Below are positions 1 to 14,422 of a stretch of 14,422 nt of DNA, in pieces. The translations under genes were made by a program, and so were the position numbers. Origin of the DNA: a virus (taxonomy: Duplodnaviria > Heunggongvirae > Uroviricota > Caudoviricetes). The stretch's first letter is position 1. Each line of letters starts with the position of its first letter. The notes below the pieces were generated by a model. It saw only the letters and a list, made by a program, of their open reading frames with translations, did no database searches and was not told the DNA's origin. The stretch lies in the IMG/VR virus record IMGVR_UViG_2681813315_000020. One strand, written 5' to 3'.

Positions 1-102
1 ATACTCATAACTAATTGAATTTAAACGACAAATAATATCTTAGATAACTTTAAAAATCGCAAAATGACTACACCAGTAACTACACCGTTCGGTGCACTGT
101 AT

Positions 103-130
103 GAAACAACGTGGAACAAATAGACACAAG
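103..130. repeat. Three 10-bp-phased GAACAAC-like repeats (GAAACAAC / GGAACAAA / GACACAAG), same motif family as arrays at 7092-7123 and 13111-13173
   Basis: Read directly: atGAAACAACgtGGAACAAAtaGACACAAG. The 12-mer ACAACGTGGAAC (107-118) is the exact reverse complement of GTTCCACGTTGT at 13154-13165. Confidence 0.6.
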
Positions 131-612
131 AAATATACAGGCGGGTCATCTTTCCAGGGGAAAGCACGCCAATTCATGAGGGGCGTTAATGTCGATATGG
201 GGATCCCCATAACGGGGCTACCTGGCTTTTTTTCCGGTTAAATGTCAATCAGGCTGGTGGGTTTTACATACCCTTGATCACCGTAATGATGATTCAGATC
301 TGCACCTTTCCACCAATGGTGGAAAAGCCCACAGCAGGCCGCCCAGCCTCCCCCAATGGGGGATTGTGGAAGAATCAACGGGTTAGGCCTTAATCATCTG
401 CGTAATCATAAGTAATCATAATGTTCATTCATCCAGCGCAATTTTGCGTTATCGGGAATATCAAACAGTTACCGCGCCGACTTCCTCAAATTGAGGTTTC
501 CGAAAATATCAGCGGGTTAGCGATTAAGCTGACCATTAATTAAACTGCGAAAATGTCGTAGTTGTGAGGGGTGTAGCCAACCCATTTTTGGACCGTCGGG
601 AATATCAACCAG

Positions 613-6899: not shown

Positions 6900-7054
6900 G
6901 AAGGTTTTCTCGCATTGGTTAAGATTCAGGACGTGAAACCAACACGGGGGGAGCGCCGCCCGACACTCTCGGCATCTCGCAGATCAACCCGGCATCGCGC
7001 AGGGGGTCAGGCGGCATTGTGGCGGCTCACGTCTGAGTGCCACACGCCAACATA

Positions 7055-7082
7055 TACATAAAAATCAGTATGTAAACATCAA
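7055..7082 (-). promoter_or_regulatory. Candidate sigma70-type promoter for the head/packaging operon
   Basis: On the minus strand: TTGATG (7082-7077) - 16 bp - TATGTA (7060-7055), immediately downstream of the GTTGTTC repeat array and upstream of the capsid gene with an about 150-nt GC-rich leader. Hexamers are imperfect; prediction by eye only. Confidence 0.3.
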
Positions 7083-7091
7083 CCAGAATCA

Positions 7092-7123
7092 CCGAACAAC
7101 CTGGAACAACCACGAACAAATAA
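7092..7123. repeat. Three 10-bp-phased GAACAAC repeats (minus strand GTTGTTC) between the terminator and the packaging-operon promoter
   Basis: Read directly: ccGAACAACCtgGAACAACCacGAACAAAt; same motif family as 103-130 and 13111-13173. Confidence 0.6.
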
Positions 7124-7142
7124 TTTACAAAACCTGAAAAAA

Positions 7143-7163
7143 GGCCCGGAAAAAATCCGGGCC
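7143..7163. terminator. Bidirectional rho-independent terminator
   Basis: GGCCCGG-aaaaaat-CCGGGCC, flanked by an A-tract upstream and T-tract downstream on the plus strand; on the minus strand it follows the stop of the 7173..7421 gene and precedes TTTTTCAGGTTTTG. Confidence 0.8.
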
Positions 7164-7172
7164 TTTATCGCT

Positions 7173-7421
7173 TTATTGTTTCACTGGCTCCCGCATTCTG
7201 CGTCTTATTTTCCACAAATATTCGATCATCGCTTCCACCTGCTCACGGTTGGTTGCGAAAATTTCCCCGGTCAGTGAGCTACGCAGAAAATCATGATGAT
7301 CCACAAAAAATAACGCATCGGAAGAAAGCAACCGACGATATTTTTTTGCTGTCGTGGTTTCCAGATCATCAAAACCATGAAGCTTTTTATGTTGCTGAAC
7401 TTCTTCAAATGTCACTGGCAT
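7173..7421 (-). CDS. Hypothetical 82-aa protein
   Basis: ORF with strong SD (AAGGGGGA) before ATG 7421; start overlaps the 3' end of the FinO/ProQ-like gene; followed by the terminator. No family recognised. Confidence 0.5.
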   Translation of the reverse strand: MPVTFEEVQQHKKLHGFDDLETTTAKKYRRLLSSDALFFVDHHDFLRSSLTGEIFATNREQVEAMIEYLWKIRRRMREPVKQ

Positions 7422-8691: not shown

Positions 8692-8920
8692 CTTCACCTG
8701 TTCACCTTTTGAGATTTTCCCTTTTTATTCATAATGTTAAGGGGTGAACAGTTTCACAAAAACTATTCACCAACTGTTCACCACTGTTCACCCTTAAAGC
8801 TCAATAAATAATCAAAAAGGTGAACAGTGAATAGTTTGGTGAACAGTTCACAAATAACTGTTCACCCTATAATGTACTGATATAAAAGATATTTATAACA
8901 GGGTGAACAGTGGTGAACAG
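8692..8920. repeat. Iteron array (about 12 copies of GGTGAACAG / CTGTTCACC in both orientations) with adjacent AT-rich tract 8663-8690; candidate replication origin
   Basis: Read directly: cttcaccTGTTCACC, GGGTGAACAG, tattcaccaaCTGTTCACCaCTGTTCACCc, aGGTGAACAGtgaatag...GGTGAACAGttcac...CTGTTCACCc, GGGTGAACAGtGGTGAACAG. Lies immediately 3' of the primase/helicase gene, the usual place for satellite and plasmid origins. Confidence 0.75.
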
Positions 8921-8933
8921 TTATTCCATAAGT

Positions 8934-10748
8934 TTAATTTTTGCTGTCGTCATTTGTGACCGATGCACATGATGGCATCCAGTCTTCTGAATCCTCTGTC
9001 AGTGTCACATTTGAACGCAAACCGTGCTTCGTTTTCCGTTTTATATACTCCCTGCCATATTCCGCCATTGCCCCCGGCATATCTTTACCGAAGCGCGTCA
9101 GTGTTACAGGTTTACCGAATCCGTGTGCCCTCATATATGCCAGATAGGCGTGATAAAGATACCTGCGCGGACTGAACGGAATAATTTCGGCATTACCCAC
9201 TAACAGACCATCACACATTACCGACGACATGAGATAGCCACAGAAGTCCACCAGCGAATCGCCCTCGCGTTTTATCACCAGAGCTTCTTCTGATTTCTGC
9301 TGCTCATACAGCAGGCGTTTAGCTTCGTCCTGGTCAGAAAAACGAGTAAGCAGATGGCGAATCACAACCGCCAGCTCTCCTTCTATTTTTTCTGCCAGCA
9401 TGGGGTCGCGCTCGTTCTCCGGTACAACCTCCGAAAAATTGAATATCACCCGACGACGTGAGATCCCCCCGCTGCGGTCACTGAATGACATGGCGTTATT
9501 GTTCACCGCCAGCACGACCGCCTGAATGCGTGTTGAGTAGGGGGCTTTATGCTTCGGGTCGATTGCCACCTTGTCACCGCCTGTAATAGCCTTAATTCCT
9601 GCGCCATCACCAGCGTAGCGGGTCATATCCGGCATGATAATCAGCGAAAAGCCAACCACTAACGCGCGTTCCCTTGCATCTTCCAGCGCCTTCATGCTTG
9701 CCGATACTGTGTTGGCCTTACCCGCCAGCATGGTGCAAATCTCCGCCATCACGCTTTTACCACTTCCCCCTGGACCTGTTACCTCAATGAATAACTGCCA
9801 GTCGTACCGGTTCGCCAGCACCATGAATAATGCAGCCAGCACGCGATCCGTCTTGCGGTCATTCTCTGCCACCGAGCAGCGTAACCACTTCCAGAAATTC
9901 GGCGCATGTGTTGCCAGCGTTTCCCCCTCTGCTGGTGGGCTGAAAGGTAATTCACTGGCAATTAACAACCAGTCGTTTTTGTTATGCTCCCGAAAATTAC
10001 CTGTTCTGGTATCAAATACCCCGTTACTGAATCCAATCAGGTTACGGGCTGTATTCCCCATTACAGGCAAACTTAACTTCATGGTATCGACCGCCGATTT
10101 AATGGCGTTCTGCGAATAGCTGATCTCCGCATCAATGAAAATCTGCGCCATAGCACGCTGTAACTCTTTATCCTGAATCGGCTCCCATACAACGCCGTTG
10201 TAATGGTGAACAGTGTCAGAGTCGGCATGAATCGCCAGTTCACCGCCATAATGTGCCAGGAGAACTTCGCCGCGCTGGCTTGCTCCCATCTGGTTAAGCG
10301 CCAGTGGTGCGGCGCTGTCTTCTGTTTTTTTCTTAACAGGAAGCTGAATCACCAGACCATCAGAAAGATTCTGGCGCTCACGGGCCAGATATTCGCGCCA
10401 GTTCTGCACCTCCTGGCCGTGCATACCCTCAGGATAAAAATTTGCATCCTGTACGCCTGCCGCCGCCAGCTTCTGACCAATCGCCTTTATCATTACTGGC
10501 GCAAGATATCCGGCCCTGAATATGCGCACGGATTTTCTGCCTTCCGGCACAATTTGCAGCTTATCCAGTTCGGATAACTGCTGCTCCCCAAGCCACACAG
10601 GAGGCTCATTATCTCCGGCCATACGCGCGTCATGTTCCTGCCATTGTTTTGCGTGTGACCAGGCATCACTACCCGCAAAAATAATGACTTCTGTTTCTTT
10701 GTGTTTTATGCCGCGTGACTGCTGTTTTACGTTCGGTGCCAGTTTCAT
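8934..10748 (-). CDS. Replication initiator: primase/helicase-type protein with D5_N-like region and P-loop NTPase domain
   Basis: 604 aa; Walker A FIEVTGPGGSGKSVMAE; upstream region resembles the D5 N-terminal-like domain found with phage/plasmid primase C-terminal NTPases. Stop codon abuts the iteron array. Confidence 0.8.
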   Translation of the reverse strand: MKLAPNVKQQSRGIKHKETEVIIFAGSDAWSHAKQWQEHDARMAGDNEPPVWLGEQQLSELDKLQIVPEGRKSVRIFRAGYLAPVMIKAIGQKLAAAGVQDANFYPEGMHGQEVQNWREYLARERQNLSDGLVIQLPVKKKTEDSAAPLALNQMGASQRGEVLLAHYGGELAIHADSDTVHHYNGVVWEPIQDKELQRAMAQIFIDAEISYSQNAIKSAVDTMKLSLPVMGNTARNLIGFSNGVFDTRTGNFREHNKNDWLLIASELPFSPPAEGETLATHAPNFWKWLRCSVAENDRKTDRVLAALFMVLANRYDWQLFIEVTGPGGSGKSVMAEICTMLAGKANTVSASMKALEDARERALVVGFSLIIMPDMTRYAGDGAGIKAITGGDKVAIDPKHKAPYSTRIQAVVLAVNNNAMSFSDRSGGISRRRVIFNFSEVVPENERDPMLAEKIEGELAVVIRHLLTRFSDQDEAKRLLYEQQKSEEALVIKREGDSLVDFCGYLMSSVMCDGLLVGNAEIIPFSPRRYLYHAYLAYMRAHGFGKPVTLTRFGKDMPGAMAEYGREYIKRKTKHGLRSNVTLTEDSEDWMPSCASVTNDDSKN

Positions 10749-11774: not shown

Positions 11775-11859
11775 CGCACCATTCGGTTTTAACCTATCAA
11801 TAAGTGAATCGCACCTCAAGCCTTTCTCTGAAATTTTTTTGTGTATACTGAATCGCACC
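11771..11859. promoter_or_regulatory. Divergent promoter/operator region with three ATCGCACC direct repeats
   Basis: gcATCGCACC (11771-11780), gaATCGCACC (11806-11815), gaATCGCACC (11850-11859). A good -10-like TATACT at 11844-11849 lies just before the third copy, upstream of the plus-strand RHH gene (SD AGAGAGGA, ATG 11880). Confidence 0.4.
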
Positions 11860-11879
11860 AACTTAGAGAGGATTCAGTA

Positions 11880-12059
11880 ATGGCAACAGGTTCAACAAAT
11901 AATAAGTCGCAACAGTTAAATGCCAGATTCCCGCATGATGTTGTTGCAGACTTAGAAAAAAATTTAGATGAAGGTGAAAGCAAGGCGCAATTTATAGTTA
12001 CTGCCGTTAAAGGTGAGATCAAACGCCGCCAGCGCCGCAAGGCCAAAGAGCAGGAGTAA
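11880..12059 (+). CDS. Small ribbon-helix-helix (Arc/MetJ-like) DNA-binding protein, candidate regulator
   Basis: 59 aa from ATG 11880: MATGSTNNKSQQLNARFPHDVVADLEKNLDEGESKAQFIVTAVKGEIKRRQRRKAKEQE; pattern of a short beta-strand (LNARFP) followed by two helices and a basic tail resembles the Arc repressor (FNLRWPREVLDLVRKVAEENGRSVNSEIYQRV). Confidence 0.5.
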   Translation: MATGSTNNKSQQLNARFPHDVVADLEKNLDEGESKAQFIVTAVKGEIKRRQRRKAKEQE

Positions 12060-12101
12060 CCATCACCAGCGCCGTGGTGTAAGGTATTACGGCGCATTGC
12101 T

Positions 12102-12290
12102 ATGCAGGACAACACAATGACCGATAAAGAATTGACCAAAACATTATCACCGACACGGAAAAGACGACGCAGAAAGATAGAGCATGAATCAGAAAGATTC
12201 GCGCCATGTGCTTTTGCCCTTGAGCAATTCCTTAAAGAGTACAGGGAAAAGCGCTCATTGCAGGTATGGCAACGAACTGAACCAGACTGA
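12102..12290 (+). CDS. Hypothetical small basic protein (start may be ATG 12117)
   Basis: ORF MQDNTMTDKELTKTLSPTRKRRRRKIEHESERF...; AGGA lies 9 nt before the second ATG; followed by an intrinsic terminator at 12357-12388. Confidence 0.35.
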   Translation: MQDNTMTDKELTKTLSPTRKRRRRKIEHESERFAPCAFALEQFLKEYREKRSLQVWQRTEPD

Positions 12291-12356
12291 TTGCATTGCC
12301 CACCAGCCGCAAATGTGGCATTGTTGGTGATGCTTTTGTTTTCCCTTGTTCTCACT

Positions 12357-12388
12357 GGCGACCCTTTTGCGGTCGCCTTTGTTTTGCC
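12357..12388 (+). terminator. Rho-independent terminator
   Basis: GGCGACC-cttttgc-GGTCGCC followed by TTTGTTTTG. Confidence 0.7.
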
Positions 12389-12481
12389 TGTTATCCGGCA
12401 ATTGTGGCGCTTCGCCACACGGTTGATATAATTCCCCTGCACTGATCCATTTTTTTCGCAGCAGGTTAATTGTTCAGAAAG

Positions 12482-12510
12482 GCGGTTCCTTATCGGGGCC
12501 GCTTTTTTTA
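12482..12510 (+). terminator. Second candidate rho-independent terminator
   Basis: GCGGTTCC-ttatc-GGGGCCGC (two G-U wobbles) followed by TTTTTTTA. Confidence 0.45.
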
Positions 12511-12622
12511 TGCCTGAAAATACCCGATAACATGGCTTTTTAGTTTCACCAGGACGAACGAAGCCCCGCCCCTGTTCGGGCGTATATCCAGTATTCATGG
12601 TTAGATCTCTGTGTTAGTGGAT

Positions 12623-12647
12623 GGCTGGCGGCGGTGCGCCGCCAGCC
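12623..12647. other. Perfect GC-rich hairpin 3 nt past the alpA stop (no U-tract)
   Basis: GGCTGGCGGCG-gtg-CGCCGCCAGCC, 11-bp stem. Confidence 0.5.
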
Positions 12648-12650
12648 TGA

Positions 12651-12854
12651 TTAGTGAACTGCCTCGCGGCTGTCCTTCCATGCCAGAACTTCGGATAAAG
12701 ACCAGCCAACGGAACGACCGCCGAGTTTACGCCGTGATGGGAATTGTCCAGTCTTCTCCAGGCGATACCGACATGAGCGGCTCAGGCCTGTAAGTTGCTG
12801 ACATTCTTTTTCACGTATAAAGCGATCAGCGCTTAACACTATTGCCTCCGTCAT
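12651..12854 (-). CDS. alpA: AlpA-family transcriptional regulator / excisionase-like winged-helix protein
   Basis: 67 aa (or 62 aa from GTG 12839, preceded by GGAGG): ...DRFIREKECQQLTGLSRSCRYRLEKTGQFPSRRKLGGRSVGWSLSEVLAWKDSR, matching the AlpA signature (R.....TGLSRSTIYRL...G.FP...KLG.R.V.W...EV..W). Downstream of and co-oriented with int as in CP4-57 (intA...alpA). Confidence 0.8.
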   Translation of the reverse strand: MTEAIVLSADRFIREKECQQLTGLSRSCRYRLEKTGQFPSRRKLGGRSVGWSLSEVLAWKDSREAVH

Positions 12855-13110
12855 TTCTCAAAGAGTCATTTGGTGTCTTATTGTGTCGTATTGTTCCCGC
12901 TAGAGTGATGAATGGCAAATATTGGTGACGGTCGTTTTACAGATATGGGGTAATTAGAATAAAAATACTTTTAATTCATTGTGATGTAGTAGCGTAAAAT
13001 TTTGCTTTTACGCCTTTTTTACATATTTTTAAGAGTGATTCGCCAGTGTATAAAAAAACAGTGTACATATAAAAATCAAATGGTTATGAATGAGTTTGAT
13101 TTTTAATCCG

Positions 13111-13173
13111 CTTGTCCCATTTTGTTCCTTGTTGTTCGTCGTTGTGTCTCGTTGTTCCACGTTGTGTCCGTTC
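13111..13173. repeat. Six tandem 10-bp-phased GTTGT(T/G)(T/C)C repeats between the int stop and alpA
   Basis: Read directly: CTTGTCCCat TTTGTTCCtt GTTGTTCGtc GTTGTGTCtc GTTGTTCCac GTTGTGTCcg. Opposite orientation to arrays at 103-130 and 7092-7123; shares an exact 12-mer with 103-130. Confidence 0.65.
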
Positions 13174-13192
13174 TGAAAAATCACGAAAAAAA

Positions 13193-14422
13193 TTATATTT
13201 CTCTGGCTATTGGCAGTGTGGTTACGTTTTCGTGAGTACCCGCCAGTATCTCTAACCGCTCTGTCCACATGTCCAGCGCATTACGTTTCGCATCGAGATA
13301 ACGGGAGTGGTTATAGACTCGCTGCATCCCTGGCATCTGGTGAGCGGTGAGTTGTTCGACAATATGCGGATCCACGCCTAAATCGTTCAGCATCGTGGTA
13401 AACGTGCGCCGTATATCGTGTAGTGACCAGTGCGGATGGTTTAATTTTTTGTGCGTGAATCTGCCGTATTGCGACACGCTGGCTTCCTGTTTCAGTTCCC
13501 CGAGTAATAGTCCTGTGTGTCGGTTCTGCTCCACCAGCCGTGTGACGAACGGTAAAATGCTTTCCGGTATTGGCCTGAATATGGCGACCTTCGTTTTGCT
13601 GTGCTCCTTCGGTACTGTCCAGAGCATTTCCTTAAAATCCCACTCCCTGATCTCCGACAGCCTCAGTTCTCCGGTTCGGCAACCAAACACAATCAGGAGG
13701 CGGATTAGTGCGCTGTAGTAGGGCGGGAATATTTTTTTATCCAGCGCCTGTAATAATTCGCCCAGTTCTTTGTTACTAAGCACGCGTTCGCTTATGCCCG
13801 GCTTTTTGCCAACGTCCACCACGTTGAGATCATCCAGAACGTTACTGACTGCGTAGCGACGTTTACGGCAGAACTTAAGCGCCTGTTTACACGCCTGCAT
13901 CATGTGACCAGACGTTACGGGGGATTTTTTGCGTATCCGGTCAAAACAGGCCAGCCAGTGACGTAATTCGCATTTATCCAGTGGCATGTTACCGATGTGC
14001 TGTATGACGTGATTATTCAGGCGACTTTTCAGGCATACATAATCGACACGGTTTTCCTTTACGTGCGTTTCCAGCCAGTAACTGATCGCATCGCCAACCG
14101 TTACGGGTTTTAACGCTTCCTGCACAGTGTAGTTCAGTTCATGACGTGGGTTTTTCCCTTCTGCCAGCCATGCACGACACTTTGCGGCTTTTTCCCTGGC
14201 TGCTTTAAGGCTCAGATCGGGATAGTTTCCCAGCTTCAGGCGTTCCGGTGTGGTATCCCTTCCCGTTCCAGCCCTGTAGGTGAAGTACCAGGTCAATTTA
14301 CCTGATGTTAAATATTTCACGCTCAGATTACCGCCATCGCTATAGAACGTATTTTTCTCCGCTGGCTTACCATAAAGTTTTCTTAACAATGTATCGCTCA
14401 GTTTGTTAAGCGCTCTGCTCAC
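13193..14422 (-). CDS. int: Tyrosine integrase, P4/CP4-57 type, with N-terminal arm-binding (DUF4102-like) domain; 5' end at or just beyond the window edge
   Basis: 409 aa reaching the window edge, where the first codon is GTG. N-terminus LSDTLLRKLYGKPAEKNTFYSDGGNLSVKYLTSGKLTWYFTYR resembles the P4-type integrase N-terminal domain; C-terminal catalytic region has HDIRRT and VYNHSRY (tyrosine recombinase His-x-x-Arg and Tyr motifs). Confidence 0.9.
   Translation of the reverse strand: MSRALNKLSDTLLRKLYGKPAEKNTFYSDGGNLSVKYLTSGKLTWYFTYRAGTGRDTTPERLKLGNYPDLSLKAAREKAAKCRAWLAEGKNPRHELNYTVQEALKPVTVGDAISYWLETHVKENRVDYVCLKSRLNNHVIQHIGNMPLDKCELRHWLACFDRIRKKSPVTSGHMMQACKQALKFCRKRRYAVSNVLDDLNVVDVGKKPGISERVLSNKELGELLQALDKKIFPPYYSALIRLLIVFGCRTGELRLSEIREWDFKEMLWTVPKEHSKTKVAIFRPIPESILPFVTRLVEQNRHTGLLLGELKQEASVSQYGRFTHKKLNHPHWSLHDIRRTFTTMLNDLGVDPHIVEQLTAHQMPGMQRVYNHSRYLDAKRNALDMWTERLEILAGTHENVTTLPIAREI

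Follow-up and report, generated by a model that had tools for sequence, protein, structure and literature searches.

What reads the 10-bp phased repeats that lie between the integrase gene and alpA in a phage-inducible chromosomal island (PICI) of Escherichia coli? The DNA analyzed here, called the window throughout, is the whole stretch of 14,422 nucleotides in IMG/VR virus record IMGVR_UViG_2681813315_000020. It matches E. coli chromosomes and in strain E500002 corresponds to a 15-kb island within yifB/comM. Judged by gene content, the window is a capsid-forming PICI, a relative of EcCIEDL933; this prototype is 80% identical to it across the int-alpA junction. Its main genes, all on the minus strand, are int, alpA, several small genes, the primase gene, ssb, a ProQ-like gene, an 82-aa open reading frame (ORF) and the capsid/packaging genes (major capsid, protease, portal, connector, HNH, TerS and TerL). 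The array at the int-alpA junction, A3, is probably an AlpA operator, one of an island-wide set of boxes for which we infer AlpA as the binder. The features at the junction are as follows.

13193 to 14422, minus strand: int, P4-type tyrosine integrase (Int) with an N-terminal arm-DNA-binding domain (Pfam PF13356, PF00589, PF22022)
13111 to 13170, plus strand: array A3, six 10-bp units, reading GTTGT on the plus strand and GAACAA on the gene (minus) strand
12651 to 12854, minus strand: alpA, winged-helix protein of 62-67 aa (Pfam PF05930 Phage_AlpA, E = 3e-18)

The int gene of the matching genome is likewise annotated as a tyrosine recombinase.

A conserved array at the int-alpA junction

On the plus strand, from 13110 to 13169, the units of A3 read GCTTGTCCCA TTTTGTTCCT TGTTGTTCGT CGTTGTGTCT CGTTGTTCCA CGTTGTGTCC. 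The TTGT core is present in six copies between 13112 and 13165, at a spacing of exactly 10 bp. When the window was shuffled 1,000 times with its dinucleotides preserved, the longest 10-bp chain of TTGT had 2 (761 shuffles), 3 (237) or 4 (2) members, and never 5 or 6. Tandem Repeats Finder detected period-10 and period-20 arrays at 13122-13172. A first-pass annotation of this DNA had described six 10-bp-phased repeats of the form GTTGT(T/G)(T/C)C, beginning 20 bp past the int stop codon. Their number and phase were confirmed. The strict pattern GTTGTKYC fits only three units (13141, 13151 and 13161), the unit at 13131 being one base off and those farthest from int being degenerate (CTTGTCCC at 13111 and TTTGTTCC at 13121), and the gap to the stop codon (13193-13195) measures 23 bp.

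We collected 69 viral-contig loci whose AlpA is 88-100% identical and added EDL933, yielding 48 distinct int-alpA spacers. A3 was present in all of them: 5-6 units follow each other at exactly 10 bp, the first of them 23-45 bp past the int stop codon. The sole change of length within the array was the gain of one whole 10-bp unit in L050. Among 36 distinct units, the information content is 1.8-2.0 bits per position in ACAA (positions 5-8) and 0.4-1.2 bits in the flanks; such a near-invariant core between variable flanks is expected where a protein reads its sites from one face of the helix. These sequence comparisons support A3 as a strongly conserved protein-binding array, as the first-pass annotation had proposed for this junction.

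Other elements were observed around A3. The sequence AATCAAATGGTTA at 13074-13086, about 25 bp from the array, is a perfect match to the integration host factor (IHF) consensus WATCAANNNNTTR, and a conserved TGATTTTTA box lies downstream of both A3 and A2 (described below). Most relatives, EDL933 (L071 16075-16095) and 31 others, carry an insertion of 21 bp that separates the array from the int stop codon. It holds a perfect 16-bp palindrome, CAGTATGCGCATACTG, which is not found in the window.

Arrays of the same box elsewhere in the island

Four arrays of the 10-bp box, nGRAACAAsn, occur in the window, each at a functionally relevant site. Besides A3 they are the following.

102 to 131, plus strand: array A1, three units TGAAACAACG TGGAACAAAT AGACACAAGA, inside the attR arm, some 100-130 bp away from the yifB junction
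7092 to 7121, plus strand: array A2, three units CCGAACAACC TGGAACAACC ACGAACAAAT, with TTGTTC on the gene strand, facing the capsid operon
12869 to 12898, minus strand: array A4, three units GGGAACAATA CGACACAATA AGACACCAAA, directly upstream of alpA

Outside the window, the attL arm carries three units (L001 17898-17927) and four degenerate units (17960-17999) abutting the core. A3 had been noted to run opposite to two other arrays; it is indeed opposite to those at 102-131 and 7092-7121, which have GAACAA on the plus strand, and with A4 and the two in attL there are more arrays than two. A position weight matrix (PWM) built from 22 units gave the consensus (T/A)G(G/A)(A/C)ACAA(C)n, and the maximum 3-unit score in 200 shuffles was 21.1. 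A1, A2, A3 and A4 scored 32.1, 29.6, 35.5 and 25.5, respectively, values that are circular because these arrays are the training set. In the PWM scan of the 14.4 kb, no 3-unit array beyond A1-A4 came near or above the maximum of the shuffles.

The set is not peculiar to this island. A1 has a counterpart at the far end of many related islands, A4 is found with 2-3 units in every relative examined, and EcCIEDL933 has A1-A4 plus the attL arrays. GAACAA arrays also occur in PICIs without terminase and capsid genes.

Tandem doublets, probable integrase sites, and phased units

The attachment arms hold a second kind of repeat, which changes from one Int family to another.

65 to 86, plus strand: 12-bp tandem doublet TGACTACACCAG TAACTACACC in the attR arm, probable Int arm-type sites
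Doublet GGTGTAGTCA: islands with Int 77-100% identical
Doublet TGTGTGGTCAGT: islands with Int 66-70% identical
Doublet GTGCAGTCAGT: L145 and L161, with Int about 52% identical
Doublet TGTGTATTGCA: helper-embedded-PICI clade, with Int 41-45% identical

A second copy of the doublet lies in attL, outside the window (L001 17859-17882), and each att-arm doublet stands 15-17 bp from a GAACAA triplet. The GAACAA/TTGTTC units persist at Int identities of 66-100% while the adjoining doublet changes, and at 41-54% they are found in degenerate form only. L072 and L100, whose AlpA proteins are 97% and Int proteins 68% identical, differ in the doublet and not in the units; going by these sequences, they are a natural recombinant pair. 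At the positions equivalent to the annotated arm repeats of P4 (about 55-95 and 113-155 bp from the core) we found the 12-bp doublets, not GAACAA units. Thus, the units neither covary with the Int family nor occupy the arm position known from P4. Since the doublet does both, the doublets are likely the Int arm-type sites, and the phased GAACAA arrays would belong to a second protein, not Int. The first-pass annotation had offered integrase or AlpA as binders of A3; the comparison favors AlpA, the Int family tracking the separate 12-bp doublets.

A study of helper-embedded PICIs reported a doubled attP motif, tgTGTATTGCantgTGTATTGCa, present twice, in one orientation, on either side of the crossover, and assigned it no binder (PMC10111431). 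This motif is a 12-bp tandem doublet like that of the window, and we found it in L135, L155, L164 and L166. That study gives the doublet for its own integrase clade only and leaves the 10-bp GAACAA arrays unmentioned, whereas the doublet of the window has the form TGACTACACC.

We also scanned viral contigs for the doublet GGTGTAGTnAnTGGTGTAGT in search of recombinants with the same Int and a different AlpA. None of the matches was usable, most of the new ones being attR arms, and a genome-collection scan using Int gave no matches. The remaining matches of the contig scan were in unrelated AT-rich gut phages with the integrase on the other strand (L190, L203, L213, L229, L282 and L292). There the doublet GGTGTAGTaAnTGGTGTAGT adjoins the 3′ end of the integrase gene and is preceded by three 10-bp phased units with motifs other than GAACAA (TATCG, GCATATCTT, TCTAC, TTATAT). 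An arm layout of triplet plus doublet seems to be widespread.

AlpA as the probable reader of the boxes

Besides Int, AlpA is the other DNA-binding recombination/regulation protein common to these islands. Its structure model (mean predicted local distance difference test score, pLDDT, of 77) has as best match the GIsul2 excisionase 8C3T (template modeling [TM] scores 0.73/0.84, 39% identity), followed by MerR-type winged helices, RdfS, TorI and BldC; as modeled, AlpA has an excisionase fold. The sites of recombination directionality factors (RDFs) are direct repeats one helical turn apart, bound cooperatively and with relaxed specificity (PMC7498355), and Apl, Cox and Vis have targets at att as well as at promoters (PMC7498355; PMC11963761; PMC2603039). 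The arrays described here are degenerate head-to-tail repeats at about one turn, the same unit is found in the att arms by the Int sites, and the island encodes a winged-helix RDF. The AlpA of EcCICFT073 activates its own promoter and not Pint, and its overexpression causes int-dependent excision as well as replication (PMC6092414). alpA is also required for the induction of EcCIEDL933.

We propose that AlpA would bind the six degenerate 10-bp boxes of A3, which share an ACAA/TTGT core and follow each other head to tail one helical turn apart, cooperatively, as RDFs do. Its boxes in both att arms, beside the 12-bp doublets of Int, would serve excision; those of A4 and A3, over and upstream of the alpA promoter, autoregulation; and those of A2, separated by 15 bp from the downstream -35 of the capsid/packaging operon, the activation of late genes.

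Several observations weigh against this proposal. The box is near-constant across AlpA variants that are only 47-61% identical, and it is kept at A2 in islands that have two AlpA paralogs and only degenerate att-arm units. In AlpA2-type islands, the spot past int holds a phased A-W-ATCG motif, and alpA is preceded, at about 130 bp, by GAAC units. A4 covers the -10 hexamer, a repressor-like position, although AlpA is reported to be an autoactivator, and the polarity of A3 and A4 relative to transcription is opposite to that of A2. Int and AlpA are closely linked, so that the recombinant evidence comes from few lineages. Finally, our literature search returned no paper defining AlpA sites in PICIs.

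For the box to stay nearly constant across divergent AlpA proteins, their recognition helix must be conserved; otherwise the binder must be another conserved protein. A putative recognition helix, G-L/V-S/C-R-S/T-x-R-Y/W/F, is common to AlpA variants down to 47% identity and could explain the constancy of the box. Position 2 of the unit is G in AlpA1-type and C ('CGAAC') in AlpA2-type islands, at the att arms and near alpA alike. This switch appears consistent with AlpA as the reader and is not discriminating, because Int differs too between AlpA1 and AlpA2 islands.

Some islands depart from the arrangement of the window. The A-W-ATCG array, 10-bp phased and in 3-4 copies, follows the int 3′ terminator (L072 15330-15375; also L101, L105, L118 and L120, about 70-110 bp past int). 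Some capsid-forming PICIs encode two AlpA-family proteins (L135 2447-3010, L155 1414-1930, L166 3268-3837), namely, a Xis-like protein of 73 aa, encoded in overlap with the end of int, and a 92-aa AlpA after a terminator. In the helper-embedded clade, whose islands have two AlpA paralogs, A2 is perfect and the att-arm units are degenerate. A comparable pair, alpA/alpA_1, is present in EcCIMP1 (PMC11773190). The antiterminator model of Pseudomonas AlpA was rejected as a guide, as it concerns a larger Q-like protein that shares only the name and whose target is one GGGACG element placed between -35 and -10.

The alpA control region

Two further features lie between A3 and alpA.

12890 to 12918, minus strand: candidate alpA promoter, TTGCCA-17-AACAAT, a consensus match only
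12992 to 13013: hairpin GCGTAAAA-N6-TTTTACGC, between A3 and alpA, terminator-like on the plus strand

A promoter scan of 12500-13400 gave this candidate as its only promoter-like site, and the TTGCCA and (A/C)ACAAT hexamers are conserved in relatives. The first A4 unit contains the -10 hexamer of the predicted promoter, and A4 also covers the start region of that promoter. A3 is about 215 bp upstream of TTGCCA-17-AACAAT, with the IHF-consensus match and the hairpin between them. We searched by eye for a sigma-70 promoter between A3 and the hairpin and saw nothing convincing. In relatives, the stem of the hairpin is preserved through base changes (GGCATAAAA...TTTTATGCC), with a T-tail that makes it resemble a terminator on the alpA strand. 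Islands that are more distant carry a terminator right before alpA (L135 2700-2730, L145 4863-4898). Helper-dependent induction might involve a terminator in front of this gene.

Read most simply, A3 and A4 would be the distal and proximal operators of alpA autoregulation; we infer both this role of A3, most likely as the distal operator of the control region, and the sign of the regulation. A3 may instead relieve silencing of the AT-rich spacer, form a loop around int with the oppositely oriented attL arrays or, at the end of int, act as a roadblock. When AlpA has built up, A3 could in addition shield the 3′ end of int or silence it.

A2 and the candidate late promoter

A2 faces a second candidate promoter.

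7049 to 7076, minus strand: candidate promoter of the late (capsid/packaging) operon, -35 TTTACA (7076-7071), 16-bp spacer, -10 TATGTT (7054-7049)

On the gene strand (window 7049-7131), the module consists of TTTGTAAATT, the three units, 15 bp, TTTACA, 16 bp and TATGTT. It lies just past a terminator hairpin (7139-7165), 150 bp upstream of the capsid gene. The layout of array, 15 bp, TTTAC(A/T), 16 bp and TATnTT is fixed in 57 loci, which represent 15 distinct sequences. The spacer lengths are invariant while the sequence of the 15-bp spacer varies, and the module is kept even where the capsid protein is 68-70% identical and the units have drifted, the middle unit of A2 being the least conserved of the three. 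Given the invariant distance from A2 to the -35 and -10 in the 57 loci, the geometry is that of an activator site, predicted at about -41 to -70 of the candidate late promoter.

EDL933-type islands show an extra phased run, TGAAACAAAC AGACACAACA GAGGAAAAAA, about 300 bp upstream of A2 near a PerC-like gene (L071 ~10085-10120 in EDL933 and about 25 other loci). This run was not found in the window.

Alternative readings of the arrays

The unusual constancy of the box despite very different Int and AlpA proteins fits a binder other than these two, such as a host reader of direct repeats (an OmpR/PhoB-type response regulator), another conserved island protein or a helper-phage protein. Response regulator sites are phased direct repeats just upstream of the -35, and A2 resembles them. 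Nevertheless, the arrays lie in both att arms at a fixed 15-17 bp from the Int doublets, which points to a recombination partner, and an odd number of units (3) is unsuited to tandem dimers. The product of the 82-aa ORF (window 7421..7176), considered as the array binder since its gene always adjoins A2, was rejected, as it is missing from islands that have att and A3 arrays. We regard a binder of this kind as unlikely.

The GAACAA units could themselves be arm-type sites of Int, with A3, A4 and A2 as extra Int arrays regulating alpA and the late operon. The units are present in both att arms, Int has an arm-DNA-binding domain, and arm-type sites such as lambda P′1-3 can be tandem at about 10 bp. 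Against this, the 12-bp doublets, 2 + 2 sites as expected for a tetramer, follow the Int family and hold the P4 arm-repeat position, and the units are unchanged down to an Int identity of 66-70%. Promoter arrays of 3-6 short degenerate units are typical of RDFs, not of Int (PMC7498355), and the reported activator is AlpA, not Int (PMC6092414). Int is therefore quite an unlikely reader of the arrays.

With a low probability, A3 could be the receiver of an inducer from the helper phage, a Xis/Cox-like protein of the helper or the AlpA of a co-resident element polymerizing on the six boxes and switching on alpA. This would be analogous to P2 Cox, which turns on P4 via phased Cox boxes upstream of PLL, a satellite promoter that the boxes activate. 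If true, it would explain why the box is constant across divergent AlpA types, and also the helper-dependent, SOS-independent transcription of alpA. That transcription needs a helper phage and not the SOS response (PMC6092414). It would also fit the excisionase cross-talk observed between PICI and helper (PMC11773190).

The first-pass annotation had suggested, as its leading idea, a promoter antisense to int, TTCTGA-17-TATATT, directly downstream of the repeats on the plus strand. In this reading, A3 would be the upstream activator site of that promoter. The hexamers do exist at 13171-13199, 1 bp past the array, and the plus-strand polarity of A3 toward them equals that of A2 toward the late promoter; in P4, int expression is lowered by the RDF, according to the title of Piazzolla 2006. 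The match, in contrast, scores 8/12 against the consensus, too little for the promoter scan to report it, and TTCTGA-17-TATATT occurs in only about 6 of the 48 distinct relatives. In 31 relatives the 21-bp insertion intervenes, and the best sigma-70-like match there is TGCGCA-17-AAAAAT (7/12). Moreover, the distance from A3 to the -35 is 1 bp, compared with the invariant 15 bp at A2. We consider an antisense promoter governed by A3 highly improbable. A role of A3 as replication iterons or as a packaging (cos/TerS) site, to which its phased short repeats by an AT-rich stretch and the IHF-consensus match at 13074-13086 might point, is extremely unlikely, as P4-type iterons GGTGAACAG with no sequence common to A3 lie instead at 8700-8935 beside the primase gene and as GAACAA arrays are not restricted to PICIs with terminase and capsid genes.

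Comparison with known systems

The closest parallels to the proposed AlpA operators are the sites of two excisionases that also regulate promoters, Apl (phage 186) and Cox (phage P2). Apl and Cox sites, like the present ones, are short degenerate direct repeats one helical turn apart. Both systems have one att array and further promoter arrays of 5-7 units, bound cooperatively by a small winged-helix protein, with five repeats at att and seven at pR-pL in phage 186 (PMC7498355). Apl and Cox belong to protein families other than AlpA, and their arrays lie between face-to-face lytic and lysogenic promoters. The arrays of the island, unlike those of these phages, occupy each of the two att arms, the alpA promoter and a site 15 bp ahead of the late-operon -35, with binding predicted at each.

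Vis of P4 is a small helix-turn-helix excisionase of the AlpA family that binds attP and also regulates promoters (PMC2603039). The layout of P4 attP is the same as that of the island, with a 12-bp tandem doublet per arm at similar distances from the core. The P4 doublets are annotated as 'attP arm sequence repeat', and a run of three GTC/TTGTCC-like units stops 17 bp short of the int-side doublet. P4 differs in the repeats themselves (doublet ATTGGGGGCAT, units GTCTTCC/GTTGTCC), in having no array at the int 3′ end, in gene order and in island type. CP4-57 has a P4-like doublet (TAGGCCCA) and GTCC-type units; it lacks GAACAA arrays, and its divergent alpA has no array nearby. The att repeats of P4 and CP4-57 had been named for comparison in the first-pass annotation.

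TorI has five sites in attL in the TorI/IntS system of KplE1 (PMC3509656), and lambda Xis binds a tripartite X1-X1.5-X2 site with a weakly specific middle unit (PMC7498355). As in the island, several cooperative RDF sites lie in one att arm by the Int arm sites. The middle unit is weakest in specificity in lambda (X1.5) and least conserved in A2. The TorI and lambda Xis sites are confined to att, whereas the box of the island recurs at three places outside att. A likeness of the units to lambda X1 (GTTGTGT in common) was set aside, the spacing being mismatched, and is kept only as a lead.

Other features of the window

The replication and boundary regions contain the following.

8934 to 10748, minus strand: primase gene, after which P4-type iterons GGTGAACAG follow

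At 8700-8935, GGTGAACAG and CTGTTCACC repeats form direct and inverted clusters. The octamer is the same as the 'ori type 1 repeat' of P4, and the clusters are presumably the replication origin of the island.

The window starts at the island/yifB boundary, its position 1 lying directly inside the yifB junction, and the crossover region is approximately ATCCGCTATT. A probable core-type inverted repeat of the reconstructed attP reads TTATAAA...TTTATAA (window 1-20; L001 18005-18025). Between its attR arm and last gene, the near-identical island of E500002 has about 400 bp more than the window (window ~130-560 versus L001 3130-3960), an indel in the non-coding tail.

A 260-aa minus-strand ORF at 11816-12598 has no Pfam match and is unannotated in the matching RefSeq genome, which has instead, at 11841-12290 on the plus strand, two small genes encoding a YlcI/YnfO family protein and a hypothetical protein. 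At the equivalent site of EDL933, a 247-aa minus-strand protein is annotated. An Rfam search of the window revealed no known RNA family.

Implications for capsid-forming PICIs

Gram-negative PICIs, capsid-forming ones included, are switched on through AlpA. As an AlpA operator, A3 would extend to PICIs the dual excisionase/regulator operators known for Apl, Cox and Vis, with no new kind of mechanism; the assignment of the boxes to AlpA in PICIs, predicted here from sequence comparison, is new. It would separate, within the att sites, the Int arm sites (the 12-bp doublets) from those of the accessory protein. In the literature that we searched, there was no account of how one 7-kDa protein drives excision, its own expression and late-gene expression. 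With a single box at the att arms, in the alpA control region and at the capsid-operon promoter, the islands would have a testable 'AlpA regulon' of five or six operators each.

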